From assembly GCA_035946575.1 (NCBI GenBank), contig DASYZG010000025.1, positions 4,617-68,616 of the forward strand: DNA of 64,000 nucleotides. The letters are read 5' to 3'. Each line of letters begins with the position of its first letter. The first letter of the stretch is position 1. Below are positions 18,386 to 61,077 of this stretch, piece by piece. A program made the position numbers and the translations under genes. The notes beneath the pieces are model-generated. The model had not been told where the DNA came from. It made no database searches and saw only the letters and a list, made by a program, of their open reading frames with translations. This DNA is from Terriglobia bacterium (GTDB lineage Bacteria > Acidobacteriota > Terriglobia > UBA7540).

Positions 18386-18473
18386 TTTGAGAGCTGACAG
18401 ATGGCGCCGTCGATGCGAAGTGAGCGGGTTTTGCCCCTCATTCCGGCGGTCCGCATGTTCAACGGGCGCGGGC

Positions 18474-21125
18474 TCACTCGCAGCGCAGCGCCGCCAACGG
18501 ATCGATTCGCATGGCGCGCCGGGCTGGAATGTAGCTGGCGAGAAGCGCCACGCCCGCAAGCAGAGCGGCCACGGCGGCGAAGGTCATGGGGTCCATGGGA
18601 TGAACACCGAAGAGCAGGGTTCTGAGGAACCGGGTGAGAAAGAGCGCGCCGGTAAGGCCCAAAACGATTCCGGCGCCGGCACGGAGGGCTCCCTGCGCGA
18701 TCACGCTGCGCAGCACATCGCCGCTCCGGGCGCCGAGCGCCATCCGGATGCCGATCTCGTGCGTGCGTTGCGTGACCGTGTACGACATCACGCCGTAGAT
18801 CCCCACCGTGGCCAGCACGAGTGCGAGGCCGGCGAAGATCGCAAGCAGCGTGGTGTTGAATCGTGGCTCCGAGACGGAATTGTAGATGAGCTGCTCCATG
18901 CTGGCCACGTCATAGAGCGGCAGTTCCGGGTCCACGCTTTCGATGGCATGCCGCGCGGCCGGCACGGCGCTCAGCGGGTCGGAAGACGTCCGCAGGATCA
19001 ATGTCAGATAGGGCACGGGCAACTGCTCGTAGGGCAGGTAAATGGCGAGCGACGCCGACTTGTCGAGCCCGCGCTGCTTCACGTCCCCGACAACTCCGAC
19101 CACGGTGCACCATCCGGCGTTCGAAAAGCCGGCATCGACACGTTTGCCGACGGCCTGGCCGCGCGGCCAGAGCCGTCTCGCCAGGCTTTCACTGACGATC
19201 ATCACGTGGCGGCTCGAGCGGTTGTCCTGGTCGGTGAAGTACCGGCCGCTGCGCAGGGCGATACCGGCGGCGCGAAAGTAGTCGCCTCCGACCACGTGCT
19301 TCCCCGGCTCGATGGGCGGCGCACCGGGCGCCGTAGGGGGCGCGCCCTCCACGGTGATGTCGCCCCGAATATAAATGCTGCCGAGCGGCAGGCCCAGGAT
19401 TGCTCCCGTGGCGCGCGAGCCCGGGAGGGCGCTCAGGCGATCGAGCGCCTGCCGCTCAAAGGCGATCATCTCAGCCGGCGTCTGGTAGCGCGATTCCGGC
19501 AGCTGCAGGTTCATCGTAAGCACGTTCGCCGGGGCAAAGCCGGGATCGACGTTCACCAAAGCCAGGAAGCTGCGGATCAGCAACCCCGCGCCCACCAGGA
19601 TCACCAGAGCCAGGGCCACTTCGCCGGCGACGAGCAGATCCTGGAAGCGCCCGCGCTGGGTGCCCGAATCCGAAGCGCGCTGCTTCATCCCACCAGCGAC
19701 GTCGGGACGCGACGCGCGCAGTGCCGGCGCGAGGCCGAACAGCAATCCGGTCAGCAGCGAAAGCCCCAGCGTAAAGCCGATCACCCAGCCGTCGATGCCG
19801 GCCGCGGCGATGCGCGCGGCTCCGGTAGGCGAACCGAGACCGTGAGGCAAGTGCGACGCCGCCGAGGCGATCAGCGGGTAACCGCCGTAGGCCAGCAACA
19901 ATCCCAGCGCGCCGCCGAGGACGCCGAGCAGCGTGCTCTCGGTGATCATCTGGCGGACGACTCGTGCGCGGCCTGCGCCGAGCGCGCTGCGGATGGCGAT
20001 CTCACGCTGCCGCGTGGCCGAGCGCGCCACGAGCAGGTTGGCAACGTTGACACAGGCGATGAGCAGCACCAGACCCACAGCGCCGAGCAGCACGAGCAGC
20101 GGCGTTCTGAAATCGCCGGCGATTTCGTAGCTGAGAGGCATCAGCGTGACCACAGGTTGCTTGGGTCGTCCATCCTTGCGGTCCAGCGCGGCGCTCAGCA
20201 CGCCGACCTCGCTTCGGGCCTGCTCCAGCGGCACGCCGGCCTGAAGCCTGACCAGCACCCGCATGCCCTCGTTATGACAATCGCTGCCCAGCACCAGCGG
20301 CGTCCAGAAATCCGACTCGTTCGGGAATCCAAAGCCCGGTGGCATCACGCCCGCAACGGTGAAGAATTGACCGTCCAGCTTGACGGATTGACCTACCACC
20401 CCGCGATCGGCGGCGAAGCGGCTCCGCCACAGTCTGTCGCTCAGCAGAATCACCCGGGCATTGGCCGATTGCTGGTCAGAGGCCGAGAAGTTGCGGCCGA
20501 ACGCCGGCCCCACGCCGAGCAACGGGAAGAGACCGGAGGTTATCTCCGCGCCGATCAGGCGCTCGGGCGTGCCGCGTCCGGTGAAGTTCGCCGGAAGCGG
20601 CGCGAATCCACTGACACTGGCGAACAAGCGCGTCTGCCTGCTCCATTCCGCGTAGTCCGGCCCGCAAACCGCGGCCGGGCCCGAGTACACCACGCCCTGC
20701 CCGGTGCTGACCCACAACGTCAGGATTCCATCGGCATCGCGGAAGGGCAGTGGATGGAGGATCACAGCGTTAACGGCGCTGAAGATCACAGCATTCGCCC
20801 CGATGCCGAGCGCCATGGTGAGAATCGCAATCACGGCGAAGCCCGGGCTGCGGCGGAGCTGGCGCCAGCTATAGCGGAGGTCCTGCCCCAGCCGGTCGAG
20901 CCAGAGCCATCCCCACGCCTCGCGGCCCTGCTCGCGCAGCAGCAGGCTGTTGCCGAATTCGCGCTCGGCGGCGAATCGAGCTTCGTCGGGCAGGAGCCCT
21001 TGCTCGACACCGCTCTGCGCCTTCATCTCCAGATGGTGCCGGATCTCTTCGTCGAGTTCGCGATGAAGCCGGCCGCGGCGGAAGGCAGTGGCCAATCGTC
21101 GGAGGGTTTCACCGATCCAATTCAT
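18474..21125 (-). CDS. ADOP-family duplicated orphan permease (MacB/FtsX-like, two 4-TM modules)
   Basis: N-terminus 'RLHRELDEEIRHHLEMKAQ...EREFGNSLLLREQGRE...LRYSWRQLRRSPGFA' is the characteristic ADOP leader. 883 aa with duplicated FtsX-type permease domains. Confidence 0.9.
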   Translation of the reverse strand: MNWIGETLRRLATAFRRGRLHRELDEEIRHHLEMKAQSGVEQGLLPDEARFAAEREFGNSLLLREQGREAWGWLWLDRLGQDLRYSWRQLRRSPGFAVIAILTMALGIGANAVIFSAVNAVILHPLPFRDADGILTLWVSTGQGVVYSGPAAVCGPDYAEWSRQTRLFASVSGFAPLPANFTGRGTPERLIGAEITSGLFPLLGVGPAFGRNFSASDQQSANARVILLSDRLWRSRFAADRGVVGQSVKLDGQFFTVAGVMPPGFGFPNESDFWTPLVLGSDCHNEGMRVLVRLQAGVPLEQARSEVGVLSAALDRKDGRPKQPVVTLMPLSYEIAGDFRTPLLVLLGAVGLVLLIACVNVANLLVARSATRQREIAIRSALGAGRARVVRQMITESTLLGVLGGALGLLLAYGGYPLIASAASHLPHGLGSPTGAARIAAAGIDGWVIGFTLGLSLLTGLLFGLAPALRASRPDVAGGMKQRASDSGTQRGRFQDLLVAGEVALALVILVGAGLLIRSFLALVNVDPGFAPANVLTMNLQLPESRYQTPAEMIAFERQALDRLSALPGSRATGAILGLPLGSIYIRGDITVEGAPPTAPGAPPIEPGKHVVGGDYFRAAGIALRSGRYFTDQDNRSSRHVMIVSESLARRLWPRGQAVGKRVDAGFSNAGWCTVVGVVGDVKQRGLDKSASLAIYLPYEQLPVPYLTLILRTSSDPLSAVPAARHAIESVDPELPLYDVASMEQLIYNSVSEPRFNTTLLAIFAGLALVLATVGIYGVMSYTVTQRTHEIGIRMALGARSGDVLRSVIAQGALRAGAGIVLGLTGALFLTRFLRTLLFGVHPMDPMTFAAVAALLAGVALLASYIPARRAMRIDPLAALRCE

Positions 21126-21263
21126 TGCCGGCTCCTTTATTGCGCCTGTTCTGCCAGCAGCCTCACCACAGAGAGCACGGAGAGCACGGAGGAGCCAACG
21201 GTTTGCGCTCTCGAGTCTCTAAGCAAAGCCGTTGAGGGCATCGGTGCTAAAGCAAGCACTTCA

Positions 21264-23993
21264 CTAATCGCATCGCAGTGCCACCGTGGGCTCGACCTCC
21301 GAGGCCCGGCGTGCCGGGAAATAGCACGACGCCAGCGCAACCAGCAACACGGCGACGGGCGTGCCGGCCAGAATCCAACCGCTATGGATGCTGACCCAGC
21401 CTTGGAAACTCGCGTTGATAAGGCGCGGCAGGGCGAGCGAGATCAGAAATCCCACGCCCACACCCGCCACAATCATGGGTGTCGAACCGCGCAGGACAAG
21501 CAGCAGCACCTCGCGACGCCGGGCTCCGAGCGCCATGCGCACGCCCAGTTCGTGGGTGCGCCGGCCGACCAGATACCCGATCAGGCCATAGATCCCGACC
21601 GCGGCCATCACCAGCGCGATGACCGCGAAGGCGCCCATCAGATCGGCCATAACGTCGTCGCCCTGTCCGGAGTCATGGAGCACGCGGTCCATGGTCCTGA
21701 TGTTGGTCACAGGCTGGTCTTTGTCCACGCCCCACACGGCCTGGCGCAGCGAGGACGCGAAAGCGGCGGGGTCAGTGCGAACCCGAACCACCAGGTCCAT
21801 CGACCCGTCGGACGCCTGAAGAAACGGAACGAACACGTGAGGCCGCCAGGTGGTCTGCCCGACGTACTCGTTCACATCGCCTACAACGCCTACGATCCGG
21901 CGCCACGAAGCCTGCTGCGAATTCGGAAGCTCCGCTGCCGTCGCCGGGCCTCCTTCCGGGCTGAGGCTGATGTAGCCTCCCAGCGCTCCGTTCGAAAAGA
22001 ACTTCCGGGCGAAGGCCTCGTTGACGATTACCACCGGATTCGAGCTGGCGTCGTCCGCCGGCGTAAACTCCCGGCCTGCGCGCAACGGAGTCTGCGTCGT
22101 GTGGAAGTAACCCGGGCTGACGGCGAAATAGCCCGCAAAGGACTCCCTCCAATCCCTGGAATCCCGCCGGGATGCCGGTCTCCCTTCGATCAGGAAATGT
22201 GCGCGGCCTGGAAACGTATAGGGAAGATCGCTGGTAACCGCCGCGGAGTCCACCTCGGGAGAGTCAGCCAACCTGTGAAGCACGCCCTGAAAGAAAGCAA
22301 GCTGGTGCGCCGGGTCTTGATAGAACTTGCCTGTCAACGAGATGGTCGCCGTAAGCACGTGGTGCGGATTCATGCCCGGCTTCGACCGCATCTCCTCGAT
22401 GAAGTTGTTGACGAAGAGACCGGCGCCCACCAGAAGGACGAGCGAGAGAGCGAGTTGCCCGGCCACCAGCAGGTTCTGCAGGCGATGATGCTCGCGGCCC
22501 GCGGTTGTCGATCTCGAACCTTCCTTGAGGGCCGAATTAGGATCGCGGCGCGAGAGCTGGAAGGCGGGCGCCAGGCCAAAGACGAAGGCTGTGACCAGGG
22601 AGACCGCGAGGGTGAACAGCAGCACGTTGCCGTCGATGGACAACTGTTCCGCGATCAGGATCGACCACTCATTCCAGTTGAACAGGCGGCCGAGCAGGTG
22701 CAGGCCCCAGGTCGCGAAGAGCAGCCCCAGACCGCCGCCAAGGAGCGCCAGGAGAAGGCACTCGGAGAGCAGTTGCCGCACGACGCGGAGCCTTCCGGCG
22801 CCAAGGGCCGCGCGAATGGCGAATTCACGGTGACGGTTGGCGTTGCGCGCCAGAAGCAGATTGGCGAGGTTCGCGCAGGCAATGAGGAGCACGAACCCCA
22901 CAGCAGCCATCAGAAAAGCCAGCGCCGGCCCGGCGCTGCTTTCCTGGATTGCGTACTCCTGGAGAGTAAGGACGTTCGCTCCCCAATCCTTGCTGCTTTG
23001 CGGATGGGTGGCTGCGATTCGCCGGGCGATGGTCCCGAGCTCGGATCGCGCCTGCACCTCGCTTGCGCCGGGCTTCAGGCGTCCGAACACACTGAGGCTG
23101 CGTTGCGCGCGCCCGGCAGCGCTCAACTGTGCGGGCGTGAAGGTCAGGGGAATCCAGAGCTGCTCGGGAAACATCCAGAGCTGCCGCAAAGTGTCCGGCA
23201 TGACGCCGATCACGGTGTAGGCCTCTCCATTGACCTTCACCGTGCGGCCGAGAACACGCGGATCGCCGCCGAAGCTCCGTTTCCACAAATCGGCGCGCAA
23301 CACCATCACGCGGTCGTGACCGGCCCGATCCTCCCCCGGCAGGAAGGCTCGCCCGAGCAGCGGGGACACACCCAGCACCTCAAAGTAGTTTGCGGACACC
23401 TCTCCGCCCGGCACGCGCTCAGGTTCACTGCCTCCGCTCAGAGTGACGTGGGCATCGTCTTCGAACGAGGAGGAGGCCGTGATGGCCGAGAAAGAGGTGG
23501 CCTCTGCGCGCCAGTCCAGGAAATCAGGGGGCGATACGGGCGAGCGGCTGGCCACGTCGCCGGCCCCAAGATTTCTGCTGAACAACATCATCAGCCGGTC
23601 GGGGTCATGGACCGGAGGTTTGCGGAGCAGCATGGTGCTGATCACGCTGAAAATCACGCTATTGACCCCGATACCGAGCGCCAGCGTCAGCACTGCTACC
23701 GAGGCAAACCCGGGGTTGACGACCAGCATCCGCAGGCCGAAGCGCAGATCGGCGGCGAACTGCTCGACCCATCGATGGACCCAGAAATCACGGCTCTGTT
23801 CGCGGAGCAACAGCGGGTTGCCGAATTCACGCCGGGCGGCGTAGCGAGCTTCGTCGGGCGCAAGACCCTCCTGAAGATGCGTCCGGGTCTTAAGCTCGAG
23901 GTGAGTGCGCATCTCTTCGTCGAGCTCTCGATGGAACTCCTCGCTTCGCCCGAAGAATCTAAGACGCCGTCCCAGCTCACCCAGCCAAGCCAT
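21264..23993 (-). CDS. ADOP-family duplicated orphan permease (second copy)
   Basis: Start set to the ATG at 23991-23993 (MAWLGELGRRLRFF...). Same leader pattern 'FHRELDEEMRTHLELKTR...REFGNPLLLREQSRD...LRFGLRMLVVNPGFA'. Confidence 0.9.
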   Translation of the reverse strand: MAWLGELGRRLRFFGRSEEFHRELDEEMRTHLELKTRTHLQEGLAPDEARYAARREFGNPLLLREQSRDFWVHRWVEQFAADLRFGLRMLVVNPGFASVAVLTLALGIGVNSVIFSVISTMLLRKPPVHDPDRLMMLFSRNLGAGDVASRSPVSPPDFLDWRAEATSFSAITASSSFEDDAHVTLSGGSEPERVPGGEVSANYFEVLGVSPLLGRAFLPGEDRAGHDRVMVLRADLWKRSFGGDPRVLGRTVKVNGEAYTVIGVMPDTLRQLWMFPEQLWIPLTFTPAQLSAAGRAQRSLSVFGRLKPGASEVQARSELGTIARRIAATHPQSSKDWGANVLTLQEYAIQESSAGPALAFLMAAVGFVLLIACANLANLLLARNANRHREFAIRAALGAGRLRVVRQLLSECLLLALLGGGLGLLFATWGLHLLGRLFNWNEWSILIAEQLSIDGNVLLFTLAVSLVTAFVFGLAPAFQLSRRDPNSALKEGSRSTTAGREHHRLQNLLVAGQLALSLVLLVGAGLFVNNFIEEMRSKPGMNPHHVLTATISLTGKFYQDPAHQLAFFQGVLHRLADSPEVDSAAVTSDLPYTFPGRAHFLIEGRPASRRDSRDWRESFAGYFAVSPGYFHTTQTPLRAGREFTPADDASSNPVVIVNEAFARKFFSNGALGGYISLSPEGGPATAAELPNSQQASWRRIVGVVGDVNEYVGQTTWRPHVFVPFLQASDGSMDLVVRVRTDPAAFASSLRQAVWGVDKDQPVTNIRTMDRVLHDSGQGDDVMADLMGAFAVIALVMAAVGIYGLIGYLVGRRTHELGVRMALGARRREVLLLVLRGSTPMIVAGVGVGFLISLALPRLINASFQGWVSIHSGWILAGTPVAVLLVALASCYFPARRASEVEPTVALRCD

Positions 23994-24053
23994 GCCGTCA
24001 CCCCGCTTGCCAGCCGTCACTTGTCACTCGTCCCTTGTCACTTTCGCCCGGAT

Positions 24054-24398
24054 TCACGCCGTTTCGAGCACGCGCACAATCGCCTGCATGACCCGGTCGA
24101 ATTCAGAGACTTCGGCGCCAAGCTGCTTGCGGCCGGCGGGAGTCAACCGGTAGAAGCGCGCGCGCCGGTTGGTCTCCGATGTCTTCCATTCCGCCACCAC
24201 CCAGCCCTTGATCAGCATTCGCTGCAAGGCGGGATAGAGCGACCCTTCTTCCACCTGGAGCACGTCCTCGGAGAGTTGATGAATCCGCTGCGCGATACCA
24301 TAACCGTGCCGCGGCCCCGCCTCGAGAGTCTTGAGGATAAGCATGTACAGAGTACCCGGCGGGATTTCGCTCTTCGAATCGTGGATCGGCTTTGCCAT
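24054..24398 (-). CDS. PadR family transcriptional regulator
   Basis: 114 aa. 'GTLYMLILKTLEAGPRHGYGIAQRIHQLSEDVLQVEEGSLYPALQRMLIKGWV...RRARFYRLTPAGRKQL' is the canonical PadR winged helix. First gene of the PadR-ADOP-ADOP string. Confidence 0.9.
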   Translation of the reverse strand: MAKPIHDSKSEIPPGTLYMLILKTLEAGPRHGYGIAQRIHQLSEDVLQVEEGSLYPALQRMLIKGWVVAEWKTSETNRRARFYRLTPAGRKQLGAEVSEFDRVMQAIVRVLETA

Positions 24399-24427
24399 CA
24401 GTTTCTCCGCCCCATAGATTCCCTAGA

Positions 24428-24442
24428 CATAGGTAGACTATG
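24428..24442. promoter_or_regulatory. candidate PadR operator palindrome
   Basis: 'CATAG-gtaga-CTATG', 30 nt upstream of the padR ATG, inside a larger imperfect palindrome (24422-24448). No experimental or comparative support. Confidence 0.3.
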
Positions 24443-24521
24443 CTTAGGTTGGCGCTGAATGTCAAGAGGATTTTGGGGGCGACTCCAGCCGCCGGGCGGA
24501 AGGGGGGAACCGGGTGCGCGG

Positions 24522-32157: not shown

Positions 32158-33561
32158 CTATCCACTCACTATTCTCTCAAGCGCCCGCACAATCTCGGAT
32201 TCCTCATGCTCGTCGAGCACGGTACGCAAATCAATCAGCACCCGATCCCGTTCCACGCGCGCAATCACCGGCGGACGATTCTGGCGAAGGCGTTCGGCAA
32301 GCTCGCCTGACGAGAGCCGGGCGTGCTGCAGCGCCACGAGAGTTGTGGGCAGCGACTGGCCGGGGCTGGAGCCGCCTCCCGCCACAGACTCACCGCGTTC
32401 GAGGTCCGCCGCCAAATCGCGCACGGTCCCGAGGCGTTCCTGGAGATGGGCGGCACGCACCGCGATCGATTCCGCCGAGGCGCGGATCATGGCGAGCGCC
32501 GGGATGCTGTCGATCTGCCCGCTGCGGTAAAGCCGCGCCGTCGCCTCGAGCGCGGCGATGGTCATCTTATCCACCCGCAGGGCCCGAAACAAAGGATTCC
32601 GGCGAATGCGCCGCAGCGGCTCGCGCGCCCCGGCGATGATTCCGGCCTGAGGTCCGCCCAGAAGTTTGGCACCGCTGAAGGTCACCACCTGCGCGCCGGC
32701 CGCGAGGCTCGGGCCGGCGGGGGGCTCGTCTCGCAATCCGCAGGGATCGAGATCCACCAGGCAGCCGCTGCCGAGGTCCTCCATCACCGGGATGTTGTGG
32801 CGATGCCCAAGCTCGACGAGCTCGGCGAGCGCGGGGCGCTCGGTGAAGCCCACGATGCGAAAATTGCTGGGGTGGACCCGCAGCAGCAAGCGGGTGCGCT
32901 CGTTGATCGCTGCCGCATAGTCCGCCAGACGGGTGCGATTGGTTGTGCCCGCCTCGCGAAGCACGGCGCCGCTCTTGGCGCAGATGTCCGGGATGCGGAA
33001 CGACCCTCCGATTTCAATCAATTCGCCGCGCGAGACAACCACCTCGCCACCCTCGGCCAGGGTGTTCAGCGCCAGAAACACGGCGGCGGCGTTGTTGTTC
33101 ACCACCAGGGCCGCTTCCGCACCCACCAGGCTGGCAAGCAGCCGGTCCGTGTGGGCGTCACGCTTGCCGCGCTCTCCCTGCGCGAGGTCGTATTCCAGGT
33201 TCGAATAGCGCGCCGCGACTTCGGCCACGCGCTCCACAGCCTGGCGCGCGAGCGGCGCCCGGCCCAGATTGGTGTGCAGGATCACGCCCGTGGCGTTGAT
33301 CACGGCGACGAGCGAAGGAACGAGTTCGGCCTCCACGCGCCGACGGACCTCGCGCTCAACTCCTTCCGCGCTGAATGGGCCGTCCACGCCCCGAGCCACC
33401 CGTTCGCGCAGCGCCTGCAGCGCGTCGCGCACGGCCTCCCGGAGAAGGGCGTGACCCGCCAGCGGCTCCAGGGCCCGAATCGCCGGGCGGTGGAGCAGTT
33501 CATCCACCGAGGAGATCTGCCGGAGCAAGTCTTCGGGTTGGGTCCGGATCTGCGAAGCCAT
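32158..33561 (-). CDS. selA: L-seryl-tRNA(Sec) selenium transferase
   Basis: 467 aa. N-terminal 'LLRQISSVDELLHRPAI', 'INATGVILHTNLGRAPL', and the PLP-lysine region 'FSGAKLLGGPQAGIIAG'. Confidence 0.9.
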   Translation of the reverse strand: MASQIRTQPEDLLRQISSVDELLHRPAIRALEPLAGHALLREAVRDALQALRERVARGVDGPFSAEGVEREVRRRVEAELVPSLVAVINATGVILHTNLGRAPLARQAVERVAEVAARYSNLEYDLAQGERGKRDAHTDRLLASLVGAEAALVVNNNAAAVFLALNTLAEGGEVVVSRGELIEIGGSFRIPDICAKSGAVLREAGTTNRTRLADYAAAINERTRLLLRVHPSNFRIVGFTERPALAELVELGHRHNIPVMEDLGSGCLVDLDPCGLRDEPPAGPSLAAGAQVVTFSGAKLLGGPQAGIIAGAREPLRRIRRNPLFRALRVDKMTIAALEATARLYRSGQIDSIPALAMIRASAESIAVRAAHLQERLGTVRDLAADLERGESVAGGGSSPGQSLPTTLVALQHARLSSGELAERLRQNRPPVIARVERDRVLIDLRTVLDEHEESEIVRALERIVSG

Positions 33562-52749: not shown

Positions 52750-53340
52750 CGGCTACGTTTGATGCGCCCCGCGATGCAAGCATCTACCGGGCGCCTGGCG
52801 GTGTGGCCTCGTGCGCGAACAATCCCCACGTCAAGGTAACATAGTTGCCGGGTGAAGAAAAGTAGAAAGTGGGCGGCCGCGGAAGGCGCTGTGTCCGGAT
52901 TTCGACGTAGGGGCGCACCGCCATGCGCCTTGGTGTGGGGGCAGGTTTCAAACCTGCCCTGGGCGGTGGACGACCCAGGAAGTCCGTGCTACGGTCGGCG
53001 CCCCGGAATCGCGCTGGCGAATCAGGCCGTAGTGACTCAATTTGTGGTCCAGGCTGCCCAGCCTGCGTCTCGCGCACGGCAGGCAAGATGTCTGCACCCA
53101 CAAACTGAGCTCCTTCCACTCGAGCCTTTGGCGTCAACAACCAAGCTGGGATATTACGCCGGCAAGTTCACCACAGGGTTGCATCGACGCCGGTCCGATA
53201 ACGGGCAGGCTACAGGATCGGTGTCCTGTGTGGCGCAAGCAATGGCTCTGGTCACCTGCCAACCGGAGACACGGCCGACCCCGCAACCCCCTATCGAATC
53301 GGCCTCTCCGGCTGTGGGCAACGATAAACCCGTCTAAGTT

Positions 53341-53625
53341 ATTGAATCTATTGCGAAAATAAATTTTCTCAATTTTCTCACTTTTCTCACTTTTCTCCAT
53401 TGTCCCAAATTCAGGGAGGACAATATGAATGTCGGGCCTTTGTGTCCGACGGCTTTGTGGGAGAGAGAACGAAGGGGAATCGGTTTTTGCGCCAAACAAA
53501 GCCATCAGGTGCTTGATAAAATGCGACTTACCATTTTTCATAGGACTCGAAAGCCATCAGGTACTTGAAAAGAAACGAGTTAAGCTCTTAAAGCCATCAG
53601 GTTATTGGTAGAAAAAGGTTTAGGC
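53341..53625. repeat. AT-rich ~285-bp dispersed element, full copy C
   Basis: Collinear with 18101-18385. The 22-mers lie at 53498, 53550 and 53590, with identical 52/40-nt spacing. The GC hairpin is replaced by a different hairpin (gtcgg..ccgac). Confidence 0.85.
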
Positions 53626-54216
53626 GTGTTTCGAAAACAGAAAAACCATGTTCTACAGGGTAAAAAGAGGCCGATTTGGCCGGATAACGACGGTTTACTT
53701 CTTCAGCTCTAGCCCGCGAAGGGGTAGAGGTCCCGTAGCCCGGCGCGACTGCTCTTGGAGCCGTGGCACAGATGCCGATATCCGCCGCGAAAGCGAGGGT
53801 AGAGTCCGGTTTTCGTTGTGGTGCAGGCTTCAAGCCCGCATTCCCAGCCGCAGTCAGCAGGCAGGACGCATACACCACAACAAAAATCGGACACTACCAG
53901 ACCGGACCCCGGCGGGGCGTCATCAGGCTGGGTTTTCAGGTCCGGACGCCGGCCTAATGGGGCTGCTGAGGTACATTGCTCTGGCCCGTGTTGCCTATGC
54001 CACCGGCTTGCGGCGATGCAGCTTGCGCCCGCATCTAATGGAGGAGGTGAGCCAAAAGGCCGCACTCTCGGTCGTGCCACGACCCCGCCCGGCGAATGTG
54101 TGTAGCGGCGGGTTTACCCCGCCATCGGTGGCGGCGTGAAGCCGTCTCGACGTCAAACTGGCCCACTACGGCTCGGTTGGTCATGGCAAGAAATCTCGAT
54201 ATACAATAGAGGACCT

Positions 54217-56475: not shown

Positions 56476-58614
56476 TTGATCGGCGACGTACTCGGCCACT
56501 ATCGCATCGTCTCGAAGATCGGGCAGGGCGGGATGGGTGTGGTCTATCGCGCTCACGATGACGTCCTCGAGCGCGATGTGGCGCTCAAGCTGGTGCGCGA
56601 AGAGAAGCCGGTCGAGAAATCCGGCAAGCTGCTGCACGAAGCGCGGGCCGCCTCGGCCCTGAGTCATCCCAACGTCTGCACCATTCACGAAGTCGGCGAA
56701 TTCGCGGGCGAGCTTTACATGGTGATGGAGCTCGTCGACGGCGTGACGCTGAAGACCCGCCTCGGAGAGCTGGGGCTGCCCATCGAATCCGTCCTGCATT
56801 ACGGAGTCCAGGTGGCCGCCGCCCTGGCGCACGCCCATAGTCGCGGCATCGTTCATCGCGACATGAAGAGCGCCAACGTGATCATCACGCCCGAGGGCCT
56901 GGTCAAGGTGCTCGATTTCGGGCTGGCGCGGCGGCCGCCCAAGCCGGTGGCCGGCGATGCCACGGCGAGCATCGCGCCTGGCGAAGGCGAAATCGCGGGC
57001 ACGCTCGCCTACATGGCGCCCGAAGTCCTGCGCGGCGAGCCGGCGGATCACCGCAGCGATCTGTGGGCCATGGGAGTGGTACTCTACGAAGCCGCCACCG
57101 GTCAGTTGCCGTTCCGGGGATCCACGAACCTCGAAGTCAGCTCCGCCATCCTGCGCGAGCAGCCGGAACCCTTGCCCGAGCGCCTGCCACCCGGGTTGCG
57201 GGCGATCATCCAACGGTGTCTCGCCAAGGAGCCTGCGCAGCGATATCAGCAGGCGGGCGAGGTGCAGGCCGCCCTCGAAGCCGTCGAATCTTCATCCAAA
57301 GTCATCATCACTCAGCCTGGCGAACAACGGGGACCTCTCACCACCACCCACCACGGCGTCCGGCACCTCCGGGTGCGGGACGGCGACGTTCTGCTGATGG
57401 TCGGGACCATCAAGGGGGCGTTCCTGCTGCGCGCTTCCGCAGACCGCCGGCGTTGGGATGTGGCCGGCCCCTATTTCCACGGCCAGTTCGTTTATGCGAT
57501 GACGTACGACGGGCGCGGAGACCGGCATCGCCTGTGGGCTTCGACGGCCGCCTTCTGGGGCACGTTTCTGCGATCGAGCGACGATTTCGGCAGGATCTGG
57601 ACGAATCCGCCGGAAGCGAACGTAAAATTTCCCTTTGAAACCGGCGCCGTTCTCAAGAACATCTGGCAGATTTATCCGGGCCCGGCCGATCAGCCGGACG
57701 TGATGTACTGCGGCGTGGAGCCGGCGGCGCTGTTCAAGTCAAGCGATGCGGGGGAGACATGGTCGCTGGTCCGCGGCCTCTTCGATCATCCGCATCGCCC
57801 GCGCTGGATGCCGGGCAACGGCGGCCTGACGCTGCACACGATCGCTCAGGATCCGCAAGACCGGCAACGTATGTACGTCGCCATTTCCGCCGGGGGGATG
57901 TACCGCACCGACGATGGCGGATGCACCTGGCAGGCGCGTAATCACGGCATCCGGGTGATCCACCAGCCCGACAAGTACCCCGAGTTCGGCCAATGCGTTC
58001 ACAAGTTCGCCATGCACCCGGCGCGGCCGGAACGCCTGTTCCTGCAGAACCATTTCGGCTTGTATCGCTCCGATGACAACGCGGACAACTGGAAGGACAT
58101 CGCCAACGGCGTGCCGTCGGACTTCGGGTTTCCCATCGTGGTTCACCCTCACAACCCTGACTGCGTCTATATTCTGCCGGTCGAATCAGACATGTTTCGC
58201 TGCACTCCCGAGGGCCGTCTGCGCGTCTATCGCAGCCGCAACGCGGGAGCGTCATGGGAGCCGCTGGCGCGGGGCCTCCCGCAGAAGGGCGCGTACGAGA
58301 CCGTCCTCCGCGACAACATGGCGGCCGACACGCTCGATCCGCATGGTCTCTATTTCGGGACGCGCAGCGGCCAGGTCTTCGCCTCCTCAGACGAAGGGAA
58401 AACCTGGAAGAAGATCCTGGAAGGACTGCCTGCGATCGTGTGCTTGAAGAGCGCCGTGGTCGGTGAGCCGCGGCGGACCCGCAGAGTTCAGGGGCCAGGG
58501 ATCAGGGGTCGGGGGCCAGGGGTCAGAAACCAGAAGTCAGGAACCAGAAGTCAGAAGCCAGAAGTCAGAAGTAAGAAGACGCCGAGGGCCAGACCACGCG
58601 CAGCAAGTCGCTGA
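56476..58614 (+). CDS. Hanks-type Ser/Thr protein kinase fused, with no TM segment, to an Asp-box (BNR) beta-propeller domain
   Basis: TTG start after GAGGAG. Kinase motifs 'GQGGMGVVY', 'VALK', 'HRDMKSANV', 'DFGLA', 'YMAPE'. The C-terminal ~370 aa carries six SxDxGxxW boxes. The last ~45 aa are read-through into a 7-nt periodic array. Confidence 0.85.
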   Translation: MIGDVLGHYRIVSKIGQGGMGVVYRAHDDVLERDVALKLVREEKPVEKSGKLLHEARAASALSHPNVCTIHEVGEFAGELYMVMELVDGVTLKTRLGELGLPIESVLHYGVQVAAALAHAHSRGIVHRDMKSANVIITPEGLVKVLDFGLARRPPKPVAGDATASIAPGEGEIAGTLAYMAPEVLRGEPADHRSDLWAMGVVLYEAATGQLPFRGSTNLEVSSAILREQPEPLPERLPPGLRAIIQRCLAKEPAQRYQQAGEVQAALEAVESSSKVIITQPGEQRGPLTTTHHGVRHLRVRDGDVLLMVGTIKGAFLLRASADRRRWDVAGPYFHGQFVYAMTYDGRGDRHRLWASTAAFWGTFLRSSDDFGRIWTNPPEANVKFPFETGAVLKNIWQIYPGPADQPDVMYCGVEPAALFKSSDAGETWSLVRGLFDHPHRPRWMPGNGGLTLHTIAQDPQDRQRMYVAISAGGMYRTDDGGCTWQARNHGIRVIHQPDKYPEFGQCVHKFAMHPARPERLFLQNHFGLYRSDDNADNWKDIANGVPSDFGFPIVVHPHNPDCVYILPVESDMFRCTPEGRLRVYRSRNAGASWEPLARGLPQKGAYETVLRDNMAADTLDPHGLYFGTRSGQVFASSDEGKTWKKILEGLPAIVCLKSAVVGEPRRTRRVQGPGIRGRGPGVRNQKSGTRSQKPEVRSKKTPRARPRAASR
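58488..58578. repeat. 13 consecutive heptanucleotide units (purine-rich strand)
   Basis: 'tcagggg|ccaggga|tcagggg|tcggggg|ccagggg|tcagaaa|ccagaag|tcaggaa|ccagaag|tcagaag|ccagaag|tcagaag|taagaag'. Purine-rich heptads continue loosely to ~58680. A pyrimidine-rich partner 'cttcgac|tttggac|tttcgac|tttcaac|tctcgac' lies at 58704-58740. Confidence 0.85.
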
Positions 58615-58746
58615 GAGCAGAATGGACGTGGAGGTGTAGAAGCGAAAGGACGGAAGGCGGAAGTCGGAGGCGTCGGCGGTCAGGTAAACCCTTCGAAGGC
58701 ATGCTTCGACTTTGGACTTTCGACTTTCAACTCTCGACTTAAACCG

Positions 58747-59241
58747 ATGCCCCTCACCTTCAACATCCCGGGACCCTTGCGCGGCTTCGCTGCGGGCCGC
58801 CGGCAGGTGGAAATTGGAACGTCGGCCGCGACTTTGTCGGAGGCCCTCGAAGCCCTATGGATCGTCTGTCCGGGTCTGCGCGACCGGGTGATGACCGAAC
58901 AAGGGCAGGTCCGGGAGCACGTGAACATCTTCGTGGGCAAGGAAGATGTCCGCTACATGGACGGACTCAAAACCAGGGTCCCGGCGGAAGCCGAGATCTC
59001 GATTCTGGCCGCGGTAAGTGGCGGCTGTGGCCCGGGCGTCGCGCCCGCGACGCGCCCGGGACAAGCGCGCATCGGAGGTGAGAATGCAAAAGATCAATCC
59101 ATTCCTGTGGTTCGACAATCGGGCCGAGGAGGCCGCGAACTTCTACACATCGATCTTCAAGAACTCGCAAATTCGAACCGTGGCCCGTTATCCCGAAGGA
59201 TCGCCGGGGCCGGCAGGAACGGTGATGACCGTCACCTTTGA
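58747..59241 (+). CDS. MoaD/ThiS-family ubiquitin-like beta-grasp protein (aa 1-93 end in GG at 59020-59025), with the ORF reading through for 71 more codons
   Basis: '...LSEALEALWIVCPGLRDRVMTEQGQVREHVNIFVGKEDVRYMDGLKTRVPAEAEISILAAVSGG' matches the MoaD/SAMP-like pattern. The next codon is TGT (Cys), not a stop. The extension overlaps the VOC gene out of frame. No obvious SD. Confidence 0.7.
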   Translation: MPLTFNIPGPLRGFAAGRRQVEIGTSAATLSEALEALWIVCPGLRDRVMTEQGQVREHVNIFVGKEDVRYMDGLKTRVPAEAEISILAAVSGGCGPGVAPATRPGQARIGGENAKDQSIPVVRQSGRGGRELLHIDLQELANSNRGPLSRRIAGAGRNGDDRHL

Positions 59242-59557
59242 GCTCGACGGGCAGACGTTCATCGCCTTGAACGGCGGCCCGGTCTTTAAGTTCACCGAGG
59301 CGATATCCTTCTTTGTCAATTGTGAGACTCAGGAGGAAGTGGACCAGTTGTGGAGCAGGCTGTCGGACGGCGGAGAAGAGAGCCGGTGCGGGTGGCTGAA
59401 GGACCGATTCGGCGTCTCCTGGCAGATCATTCCCAAAGCGCTCGGCGAGATGCTTCAGGACAAGGACGCCGCACGAGCGAAACGAGTGGTGCAGGCGATG
59501 CTCCAGATGAAGAAGATTGACGTCAACATCTTGAGGCAGGCGTACGAGCAGCAGTAG
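59084..59557 (+). CDS. VOC/glyoxalase-superfamily protein, PhnB-like (3-demethylubiquinone-9 3-methyltransferase-domain type)
   Basis: ATG preceded by GGAGGTG. 'INPFLWFDNRAEEAANFYTSIF...TVTFELDGQTFIALNGGP.FKFTEAISF.V.C..QEEVD.LW..L...G....CGWLKDRFGVSWQI'. Confidence 0.85.
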   Translation: MQKINPFLWFDNRAEEAANFYTSIFKNSQIRTVARYPEGSPGPAGTVMTVTFELDGQTFIALNGGPVFKFTEAISFFVNCETQEEVDQLWSRLSDGGEESRCGWLKDRFGVSWQIIPKALGEMLQDKDAARAKRVVQAMLQMKKIDVNILRQAYEQQ

Positions 59558-59611
59558 TACAAGCCGGAGCAAACTGGCAGGACGGACGCACAAACTCAAA
59601 GGGAGGATGGG

Positions 59612-60784
59612 ATGAGCAAAGTACGAGTACTGGCGGGAACGCGAAAAGGCGCTTTCATTCTCGAATCCGACGGCAAGCGCGAGAAGTGGGAAGTCAGTGG
59701 TCCGCATTTCACAGGGTGGGAAATCTATCACATGAAGGGATCGCCCGCAGACCCCAACCGGATTTATGTCTCGCAGACGAGCGGCTGGTTCGGGCAGATC
59801 ATCCAACGCTCGAACGACGGCGGCAAGACATGGGAAGCGCCCGGAGGCGGCGTGCAGATGTCGCCCCAGGGCTGGCCCATGGGCGAGAGCAACCGTTTCG
59901 TCTACGATACGACGGCGGAGACCGGCAAACCTCTGACCACGCACCAGCATTATGACGGCACGCAGCGTCCCTGGGAATTCAAGCGCGTGTGGCATCTCGA
60001 GCCGTCGCTCACCGATCCTGATACCGTCTACGCCGGAGTCGAAGACGCGGCCATTTTCAAGACCACCGACGGCGGACACAGTTGGCACGAGATGTCCGGG
60101 CTGCGCGGCCATGGCACCGGGCCCAAGTGGCAGCCGGGGGCGGGCGGCATGTGCCTGCACACCATCATCCTGAACCCGAACGGCCAGATCGTGGTGGCCA
60201 TCTCGGCGGCAGGCGCCTTCCGGAGTGATGACGACGGCAAAACGTGGAAGCCAATCAATCGCGGACTAAGGTCCCAGTACATCCCGGATCCGAACGCGGA
60301 GACCGGGCACTGCGTTCACCACATCGCCCGGAACGCCTCGCGCCCCAACGTGCTCTTCATGCAAAAGCACTGGGACGTGATGCGCAGCGACGACGCCGGC
60401 GACAACTGGCGCGAGGTCAGCGGCAATCTGCCCACCGATTTCGGCTTCGCCATCGACGTGCACGCGCACGAGCCGGAGACCATCTACGTGGTGCCCATCA
60501 AGAGCGACTCGGAGCACTTCGTTCACGAAGGCAAGCTGCGCGTCTACCGCAGCCGCACGGGCGGTAACGAGTGGGAGGCGCTCACCAACGGCCTGCCGCA
60601 GAGCAACTGCTACCTTAACGTGCTGCGCGACGCCATGGCGGTCGATTCGCTCGACAAATGCGGAATCTATTTCGGCACTAGCGGCGGGCAGGTGTACGCA
60701 TCGGCCGACGCCGGGGATACCTGGGCGCCGATCGTGCGCGATTTGCCGCCGGTACTCTCGGTCGAGGTGCAAACGCTGTCATGA
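59612..60784 (+). CDS. stand-alone signal-less Asp-box (BNR) beta-propeller protein, paralogue of the kinase C-terminal domain
   Basis: AGGGAGGA SD. Six Asp-boxes ([51 protein letters not shown]). Roughly half the residues are identical, by eye, to kinase residues ~300-665. No signal peptide or TM. Confidence 0.85.
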
Positions 60785-61077
60785 TCCGCGTCGAGCTGCC
60801 TTATCATCTCCGCAAGCTGGCTCACCTCGACGGCGAAGTGCAACTCGAAGTCGCCGGCGAGGTAACGCAGCGATCAGTGCTTGATGCCCTCGAGGCGCGG
60901 TATCCCGTGCTGCGCGGAACCATCCGCGACCACGACAGCGGGAAGCGTCGCGCTTTTCTGCGATTCTTCGCCTGCCAGCAGGACCTTTCGCACGACTCGC
61001 CGGACGCGCTGCTGCCCGAGGCGGTGGCCTCCGGCGCCGAGCCCTTCATGGTGATCGGAGCGATAGCCGGCGGTTAA
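60781..61077 (+). CDS. MoaD/ThiS-family ubiquitin-like protein ending in GG-stop
   Basis: 98 aa. '[14 protein letters not shown]...[28 protein letters not shown]...[12 protein letters not shown]...[12 protein letters not shown]'. The ATG overlaps the propeller stop (ATGA at 60781-60784). Confidence 0.85.

Follow-up and report, generated by a model that had tools for sequence, protein, structure and literature searches.

What does an Asp-box beta-propeller, publicly labelled a sialidase, do next to a small protein of the ubiquitin type? This question is raised twice over by a 64,000-nucleotide stretch of DNA from a Terriglobia bacterium (GenBank assembly GCA_035946575.1, contig DASYZG010000025.1, positions 4,617 to 68,616 of the forward strand), the whole of which is referred to here as the window. 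Between its positions 56476 and 61077, a Hanks-type Ser/Thr kinase fused to a propeller domain (prop1) precedes the gene for a ubiquitin-like protein (Ubl1), and a stand-alone propeller (prop2) precedes that for a second one (Ubl2). We conclude that these genes are two anciently diverged copies of one self-contained module, consisting of a propeller and a ubiquitin-like protein (Ubl), and that the two proteins are very probably dedicated functional partners, and probably physical ones as well. The partner link is well supported, and we infer from it, further below, a possible chemistry. The locus comprises the following features, in which GG denotes the diglycine of the Ubl.

56476..58614, plus strand: gene for the kinase-propeller fusion, 712 amino acids (open reading frame with Pkinase and Sortilin-Vps10/BNR matches)
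58488..58740, no strand assigned: runs of 7-nucleotide tandem repeats (Tandem Repeats Finder)
58747..59028, plus strand: Ubl1 up to the GG and the next codon (Pfam ThiS; DNA alignment with loci L082 and L106)
59029..59241, plus strand: read-through extension of Ubl1 (open reading frame; unconserved; overlaps the VOC gene in another frame)
59084..59557, plus strand: PhnB-like VOC protein (Pfam PF06983, 171.7 bits)
59612..60784, plus strand: prop2, stand-alone propeller, 390 amino acids (phmmer to 3b7f_A, AlphaFold, Foldseek)
60781..61077, plus strand: Ubl2, 98 amino acids, ending in ...GAIAGG-stop (open reading frame, model, Foldseek, hhalign)

Conservation of the propeller-Ubl pair

A metagenome scan with the prop1 domain yielded 80 loci, in all of which a kinase is fused upstream of the propeller. 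A Ubl1 homologue follows the kinase-propeller gene in each of the 71 informative loci, i.e. those with more than about 200 nucleotides of downstream sequence, and its start mostly abuts or overlaps the upstream stop codon. The scan with prop2, performed with one genome per species, returned 80 orthologues that are 76-84% identical and belong to at least seven phyla, among them Acidobacteriota, Myxococcota (Anaeromyxobacter), Nitrospirota (Manganitrophaceae), Planctomycetota and Verrucomicrobiota, with further members in Binatia, Syntrophobacter and others. Downstream of prop2, a Ubl2 homologue (57-79% identical) is present in approximately 70 of these 80 species, and 66 of the 70 homologues end in ...GAIAGG directly followed by the stop codon. 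In 33 of the 70 cases the stop codon of prop2 and the start of Ubl2 overlap, as they do in the window, where the ATGA at 60781-60784 noted in the initial annotation can be read directly from the sequence; the remaining gaps range from 5 nucleotides to approximately 5.6 kb, some of them with inserted genes. In four loci from Acidobacteriaceae (L037, L043, L071 and L073), a KaiC-like ATPase gene and a histidine kinase gene are inserted on the opposite strand between prop2 and Ubl2. Accessory genes seldom reach an identity of this order over so many phyla, which for prop2 suggests that it was transferred horizontally, is under very tight constraint, or both. Moreover, prop2 and Ubl2 each account for at least 8,000 database clusters at 90% identity, and the pair is very widespread in soil bacteria.

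The two cassettes stand side by side in only two of the 80 kinase-prop1 loci, L082 and L106, which shows that their juxtaposition is occasional. Each cassette is independently conserved, and the two-gene pairing is strong on its own. The cassettes had initially been described as duplicated, with propellers that are roughly half identical. Their paralogy stands, the propellers being 41% identical over 387 columns (E 8e-100) rather than half. A recent local duplication was rejected in view of this value, of the approximately 25% identity between the Ubls and of the rare adjacency of the cassettes. As BLASTP detects no similarity between Ubl1 and Ubl2, the term 'duplicated' can only refer to an ancient paralogy.

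In addition, we inspected distant propellers with 30-41% identity to prop2, sampled from a plasmid/chromid collection and from encoding contigs. In Ralstonia solanacearum, Cupriavidus metallidurans CH34, Burkholderia cenocepacia and Mitsuaria, a Ubl ending in ...QAL[ST]GG-stop is located immediately upstream of the propeller gene; where annotated in RefSeq, it is termed a 'MoaD/ThiS family protein' beside an 'exo-alpha-sialidase'. In Arthrobacter and Nonomuraea the Ubl lies downstream of the distant propeller, and on contig L168 a gene with a Pfam ThiS match is found 10 nucleotides upstream of it. A single metagenomic contig carries a natural ThiS-propeller fusion with an internal GG (P0198). 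The adjacency is thus conserved far outside this genome. Taken together, the propeller and Ubl genes are inherited together, diversify together and are often translationally coupled. The proposal of a propeller dedicated to the Ubl as its partner is accordingly borne out by the adjacency in both cassettes and in distant subfamilies, by the frequent coupling and by the P0198 fusion. No adjacent Ubl was found for two Streptomyces plasmid copies, three Rhodobacterales copies and contig L169. The propeller on a plasmid of Rhodobacter sp. CZR27 (L173, 589-4116), likewise without an adjacent Ubl, is divergently oriented beside egtB-egtD of ergothioneine biosynthesis, a single case that may be a coincidence.

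None of the substantial open reading frames in the 64-kb window encodes a ThiF/MoeB, JAMM, rhodanese, MoaE, ThiG or CysM domain. Likewise, no ubiquitin-activating-type enzyme (E1), JAMM protein, rhodanese or known sulfur-acceptor enzyme recurs in the 160 related loci (80 + 80), which extends what had first been noted for the window, namely that the pair comes without an E1, a sulfur acceptor or a JAMM peptidase. Among the 80 loci of the kinase-prop1-Ubl1 module, not a single neighbour gene recurs. Since nothing recurs consistently near either pair, the two-gene units are self-contained, and an E1 or a peptidase, if needed, must work in trans.

Clustering of the open reading frames in the 80 prop2 loci revealed variable neighbours, mostly co-directional with the pair: HxlR-type regulators (20 loci), PhnB-like VOC proteins (17), DUF4760 proteins (12) and YCII proteins (10), and more rarely DinB, AHSA1/SRPBCC, RibD_C, DUF4440 and DoxX proteins. 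The HxlR, VOC, YCII, DinB, AHSA1 and DoxX neighbours weakly suggest a role in thiol, electrophile or redox stress. In the window, both Ubl1 and the VOC gene sit between the two propeller genes, and the early assignment of the latter to the PhnB/VOC type is supported by its PF06983 score. As a core component the VOC gene was rejected, being a variable neighbour that lies near prop2 in just those 17 of the 80 loci.

Identity of the propellers, the kinase and the Ubls

The sole solved structure that prop2 matches by sequence is 3b7f_A (phmmer, E 5.8e-62, residues 4-385), i.e. Reut_B4987 of Cupriavidus pinatubonensis JMP134, a structural-genomics entry named 'putative glycosyl hydrolase with BNR repeats'. 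The AlphaFold model of prop2, with a predicted local distance difference test (pLDDT) of 90.2 and a predicted template modelling score (pTM) of 0.90, aligns with 3b7f in Foldseek at a template modelling (TM) score of 0.84-0.89 (E 1.5e-35, 32% identity). By full-length sequence and by fold likeness to Reut_B4987, prop2 therefore belongs to the 3b7f type, which comprises single 7-bladed Asp-box propellers and carries the JGI name 'photosystem II stability/assembly factor-like'. The structure is listed as a 7-bladed Asp-box propeller of no assigned function (PMC2716378). Remoter structural neighbours of prop2 are single GH74 propellers, Ycf48 (including the D1-peptide-bound form), the Vps10 domains of sortilin and SorLA, and 1jof. 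The prop2 subfamily carries an insert of approximately 50 residues (about 76-125), which is modelled with low confidence. At its N-terminus prop2 shows neither a hydrophobic stretch nor a signal peptide, as had been stated for the stand-alone paralogue at 59612-60784.

In public databases the propellers are annotated as 'exo-alpha-sialidase' or 'sialidase family protein', and the Ubl as 'molybdopterin synthase sulfur carrier subunit'. The sialidase annotation of the propellers is unsupported. The BNR_2 model scores prop2 with 27.0 bits versus a cut-off of 31.4 and does not match prop1, the identity as a GH33 enzyme being rejected also on the basis of seven blades, as in 3b7f, versus the six of sialidases, and of the missing signal peptide. 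A GH74 xyloglucanase requires two propellers in tandem versus the single one of approximately 360-390 amino acids found here, and GH74 chains are matched with a TMt of only 0.18-0.33. Sortilin-Vps10 (PF15902) reaches 53.7-54.9 bits with a cut-off of 33, but the best stretches cover only 2-60 or 3-114 of 446; these are repeat-level matches, and the Vps10 domain has ten blades, the fold here seven. Ycf48/HCF136 was discarded with 20.7 and 23.8 bits for PF14870 versus 27 and approximately 20-22 bits for NF010237 versus 326, and so was the F510_1955 family glycosylhydrolase (NF045728), for which prop1 scores 61.5 and prop2 80.5 bits versus a cut-off of 175.

The kinase of the fusion protein is identified as a Hanks kinase by Pfam Pkinase (PF00069), which matches residues 9-258 with 175.8 bits versus a cut-off of 31.7, and the motifs GQGGMG, VALK, HRDMKSAN, DFG and APE are intact. 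The kinase (residues approximately 1-290) is followed by a linker of approximately 45 residues, the 7-bladed Asp-box propeller (approximately 305-660; nucleotides approximately 57388-58455) and a basic disordered tail of 52 residues, 17 of which are K or R (nucleotides approximately 58456-58611). Six SxDxGxxW boxes had been counted initially; the presence of Asp-box repeats was verified, but only five are strict, and the further ones are degenerate. The maximal Kyte-Doolittle value over any 19-residue stretch of the fusion is 1.26, so that it lacks a membrane segment and should be soluble and cytoplasmic. Judged by its sequence, the kinase would thus be a cytoplasmic enzyme with intact catalytic motifs, and the initial view of a complete kinase joined to an Asp-box domain without a hydrophobic segment, and of both propellers as cytoplasmic proteins, agrees with these data. 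The 3′ end of the fusion gene, encoding the Arg/Lys-rich tail, and the 132-nucleotide spacer before Ubl1 are spanned by successive tandem repeat arrays (58488-58740; TCAGGGG x5.6, GTCAGAA x8, GCGGAAG x4.4 and TTCGACT x5). Most relatives lack this spacer, and their Ubl1 begins next to the preceding stop codon or overlaps it.

Ubl1 starts at 58747 and has its GG codons at 59020-59025. The next codon (59026-59028) is TGT, after which the frame continues with 70 more sense codons (59029-59238) to a stop at 59239-59241. The open reading frame thus extends to 59241, encodes 164 amino acids, runs for 71 codons past the GG and overlaps the next gene in another frame. In a DNA alignment, the two closest relatives, L082 and L106, have TGA at the position of the TGT. 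This single-base difference may be genuine variation or stem from an error in the consensus of the metagenome-assembled genome. No entry of the protein database equals the window's Ubl1, the best match being 90% identical; identical NCBI proteins exist for prop2 and for Ubl2. The initial description of an approximately 95-residue diglycine protein after each propeller consequently holds for Ubl2, with its 98 residues and GG-stop, and fails for Ubl1, in which the GG is internal. The window's Ubl1 belongs to a common class, since 38 of 71 Ubl1-family genes run 1-132 unconserved residues past the invariant SGG. Sequencing errors are not the cause, as independent contigs share identical extensions. 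In three loci (L083, L084 and L088), the gene downstream of the kinase-propeller gene is an in-frame fusion of ThiS with a pyridoxamine-phosphate-oxidase-like (PNPOx) domain, again with an internal SGG.

Both Ubls could be placed in the MoaD/ThiS family, as first suggested, Ubl1 by Pfam ThiS (PF02597, 28.6 bits, cut-off 22.5) and Ubl2 by its model and by profile comparison. The best PDB sequence matches of Ubl1 are CysO of Mycobacterium tuberculosis (3dwg_C, E 1e-8) and BexX-bound CysO (4n6e_B). With the NCBIfam equivalog model SAMP1 (NF041918), Ubl1 scores 56.4 and Ubl2 16.3 bits, both below the cut-off of 60. Ubl2 has its GG codons at 61069-61074, followed by the stop, and returned no Pfam match. 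Its AlphaFold model (pLDDT 90.4, pTM 0.82) resembles SAMP1, the closest match, as well as CysO, MoaD and Urm1 (Foldseek, TM 0.76-0.83). The last ten residues have a mean pLDDT of 66, which fits a flexible tail. When profiles of 70 Ubl2 and 58 Ubl1 homologues were compared by hhalign, they aligned end to end over 91 columns (94.8%, E 5e-8); at approximately 25% identity the relation is detectable at the profile level only. Both proteins have a P-x-LR...R...F-[FV] core and an A-x-[AS]-G-G end, and the GG is invariant in both families. The model matches, the hhalign result and these common motifs assign Ubl2 to the ThiS/MoaD family, and sequence and model agree that Ubl1 and Ubl2 are, by prediction, diverged members of one ThiS/MoaD Ubl lineage. 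In the Ubl2 family, moreover, a Cys in the motif FFAC (C65) is almost invariant and numerous Arg residues are invariant, features that Ubl1 lacks.

The predicted pocket and the proposed role of the pair

Five residues (H183, H236, Q251, H253 and R339 in prop2 numbering) are invariant in 17 diverse propellers, which include prop1, 3b7f-type proteins and members without an adjacent Ubl. Outside Burkholderiales, conservation extends to H167 and C234; the 3b7f/Burkholderiales subfamily keeps the five invariant residues but has Asp in place of C234. According to the secondary structure of the model, these residues lie at the starts of inner strands and in the loop between strands 2 and 3, a pattern that would place the invariant His, Gln and Arg residues on the propeller's 'top' face. 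All known Asp-box enzymes use this face (PMC2716378). The three or four His of the cluster, together with Gln and Arg, could bind a metal or form a pocket for a carboxylate or thiocarboxylate. The kinase-fused copy retains every pocket residue and should therefore function in the same way as the free propeller. In Hanks kinases, fused soluble domains are mostly sensors, which favours a binding or reading role, at least in the fusion.

We therefore propose the following mechanism. The propeller and the Ubl would form a complex, in which the Ubl tail would reach the top face with its His/Gln/Arg cluster. A housekeeping E1 of the MoeB/MoeZ/ThiF type would activate the Ubl C-terminus in trans, via an acyl-adenylate to a thiocarboxylate, and the propeller would serve as acceptor enzyme or as reader of the activated end. 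In the fusion, the propeller would be the sensor of the Hanks kinase, converting the presence, thiocarboxylation or processing of the Ubl into Ser/Thr phosphorylation. There are precedents for such steps: Ycf48 holds the C-terminal tail of D1 (PMC10403576), the tunnel of sortilin binds ligands (PMC2716378), and a study on mycobacteria describes MoeZR as an in-trans E1 for both CysO and MoaD (PMC3227635). We consider this fuller mechanism, with activation in trans, a tail directed to the pocket, a propeller that accepts or reads it and a kinase fusion that transduces the Ubl state, to be a serious candidate that stops just short of being probable. The more far-reaching view, namely a new bacterial system of Ubl signalling and transfer, in which a cytoplasmic propeller with a possibly metal-binding His3/Gln/Arg site reads or accepts the activated tail and, in the kinase-fused paralogue, the thiocarboxylation or processing state of the Ubl is passed directly on to Ser/Thr phosphorylation, is doubtful.

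Several findings weigh against this mechanism. No linked E1, JAMM protein or rhodanese recurs in the 160 loci, so that activation of the Ubl has to be assumed. A carrier needs a free GG; hence, the 38 Ubl1 genes that continue past it demand a peptidase or a different chemistry, and either an unlinked peptidase or the propeller itself trims these extensions, or Ubl1 functions without C-terminal chemistry. The Streptomyces and Rhodobacterales propellers without an adjacent Ubl keep the pocket, for which reason its ligand may be unrelated to the Ubl. Moreover, six prop2 loci lack Ubl2 in the 2-8 kb of downstream sequence examined, and the stress-related gene context varies and is merely suggestive.

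Alternatively, the Ubl could be a protein modifier, its GG being conjugated to lysines of target proteins in the manner of SAMP, Urm1 or TtuB, with the propeller as E3-like receptor, reader or main target and the kinase fusion signalling conjugation. SAMP1 gives the best NCBIfam score of Ubl1 and is the closest match to the Ubl2 model, although its cut-off is not reached. SAMP, Urm1 and TtuB both carry sulfur and modify proteins, and conjugation by Urm1 has been tied to oxidative stress in one report (PMC9574740), the neighbour genes here suggesting redox or electrophile stress as well. In addition, ubiquitin is bound by eukaryotic WD40 propellers (PMC5663479, PMC4828692). However, the loci examined lack a linked E1, E2 and deconjugating peptidase, read-through tails are common in Ubl1, and the strict 1:1 pairing with one propeller looks more like enzyme and carrier or receptor and ligand. 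We judge a modifier function unlikely.

The lack of an E1 or a peptidase near the loci would be explained if the Ubl were a non-covalent subunit, i.e. a structural or regulatory component or folding partner of the TmoB type, whose GG tail plugs or gates the pocket without adenylation while the substrate is a small molecule. Such a role is consistent with the post-GG extensions tolerated by half of the Ubl1 genes, with the same pocket in propellers without an adjacent Ubl, and with translational coupling, which suits stoichiometric subunits. It is hard to reconcile with an invariant GG that is exactly C-terminal in 66 of 70 Ubl2 proteins, a hallmark of C-terminal activation that a structural tail would hardly require. 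This possibility appears rather unlikely.

The internal-GG forms point to yet another explanation, in which the propeller is a metal-dependent hydrolase that acts on the Ubl C-terminus, trimming extensions, freeing fusions or hydrolysing thiocarboxylates or conjugates, and thereby replaces a JAMM peptidase. Such forms are frequent where JAMM is absent (38 of 71 Ubl1 genes, the three ThiS-PNPOx fusions and P0198), the invariant His3/Gln/Arg cluster could hold a catalytic metal, and propeller hydrolases and lactonases exist, 1jof being among the structural matches. Nevertheless, Pfam and NCBIfam give no peptidase motif or family match, the argument relies on the absence of evidence for another peptidase, and Ubl2, which almost never needs trimming, shows the tightest linkage; we regard this role as improbable. 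Finally, the combination that the public annotations imply, an ordinary molybdopterin or thiamine sulfur carrier (MoaD/ThiS) and a glycosidase or sialidase that are adjacent by chance, is most improbable given a pairing in more than 140 loci of several phyla without moaE, thiG or thiF nearby, propellers without a signal peptide and with seven blades versus the six of sialidases, a BNR_2 score of 27.0 versus 31.4 and a single propeller versus the two of GH74.

Relation to known systems and surroundings of the locus

The module resembles the pairs CysO-CysM, MoaD-MoaE, ThiS-ThiG and CysO-BexX, in which a gene for a GG-ended beta-grasp protein lies beside that of its partner, often translationally coupled. 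Internal-GG fusions occur occasionally there too, and the E1 can act in trans, as stated for MoeZR (PMC3227635). CysO (3dwg_C, 4n6e_B), the top PDB match of Ubl1, is also matched by the Ubl2 model. In contrast to these sulfur-carrier pairs, the role of partner falls here to a beta-propeller, whose fold is not known to accept sulfur; a linked pyridoxal phosphate enzyme, a MoaE- or ThiG-type enzyme, an E1 and JAMM are missing, and one partner is fused to a kinase. With SAMP1, Urm1 and TtuB the Ubls have in common the fold, the GG tail, the closest structural and NCBIfam matches and a context that hints at stress, whereas they score below the SAMP1 cut-off, neither conjugates nor a conjugation apparatus are known for them, and the pairing with a propeller is unique to this module.

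On the propeller side, 3b7f represents the same family, and its relatives in Cupriavidus, Ralstonia and Burkholderia have the Ubl immediately upstream versus downstream in the case of prop2. Ycf48/HCF136 and sortilin/SorLA are likewise Asp-box propellers that bind peptide tails and are structural neighbours of prop2, but their location is extracytoplasmic or lumenal, sortilin is 10-bladed, and the Arg patch of Ycf48 is not conserved here. The WD40 ubiquitin readers, such as Doa1/Ufd3 and COPI subunits, and the propeller receptors of E3 ligases recognise the ubiquitin fold by a propeller (PMC4828692, PMC5663479). As these are WD40 and not Asp-box propellers, bind a surface patch of ubiquitin and not its tail, and have no evolutionary link to the family, the likeness is no more than an analogy.

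Cytoplasmic Hanks kinases with C-terminal propeller sensors exist, e.g. the WD40-fused PkwA. The fusion described here shares with PkwA-type proteins the order of kinase and soluble propeller without a membrane segment, but differs from them in the type of propeller and in that the sensor has its own conserved, translationally coupled ligand-like protein.

The ThiS/MoaD-propeller pair is not described in the literature searched, including the Aravind-lab surveys of prokaryotic Ubls. It is visible in RefSeq annotation as adjacent genes and appears unstudied. What is new here is best classed as the propeller as a partner class of a Ubl/sulfur-carrier module, together with its kinase-coupled form. 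Ubiquitin has its prokaryotic roots in the ThiS/MoaD-type proteins, and each new partner class has so far led to new chemistry (molybdenum cofactor, thiamine, cysteine, thiosugars, tRNA thiolation) or to a mode of protein modification. The propeller is mis-annotated as a 'sialidase' in thousands of genomes, and 3b7f has been solved since 2007 without a function. The association is solid and surprising, and it renders this orphan structure testable; as the pair is present in tractable Ralstonia, Cupriavidus, Burkholderia and Arthrobacter, experiments can be performed directly. At the minimum, a large annotation error is corrected and a two-gene module is defined for experiment. If its proposed role is correct, the fusion protein would provide a first case of a Hanks kinase with a sensor that brings its own Ubl-type ligand. 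On the more far-reaching view given above, sulfur or redox status would be connected with Hanks-kinase signalling, and the system would correspond in prokaryotes to the propeller-based readers of ubiquitin.

With regard to the surroundings, the cassette region is flanked by ftsK, grpE and dnaJ upstream and by lptD and hemB downstream. Scans for promoters and terminators in the locus gave background level only, and the window gave no hit with Rfam or in searches for tRNAs and CIRCE elements. PADLOC recognised only the kinase domain in the locus, by generic kinase models; none of its defence-system models matches Ubl1, Ubl2, prop2 or the VOC protein. An apparent open reading frame of 2,023 codons (18387-24458), rich in Arg, Ala and Gly and without a Pfam match, was set aside, since it looks like an antisense artefact. 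The 1.4 kb between ftsK and grpE (52750-54135) contain no convincing open reading frame and no Rfam, tRNA or CIRCE hit; within them, at 53362-53401, the 9-nucleotide sequence AATTTTCTC is repeated in tandem 4.4 times. The dnaJ gene directly adjoins grpE, and dnaK does not lie between them. Unlinked to the propeller-Ubl module, a gene for the selenocysteine synthase SelA was observed on the minus strand (32158-33561, Pfam 464 bits), which indicates that the organism probably uses selenoproteins.

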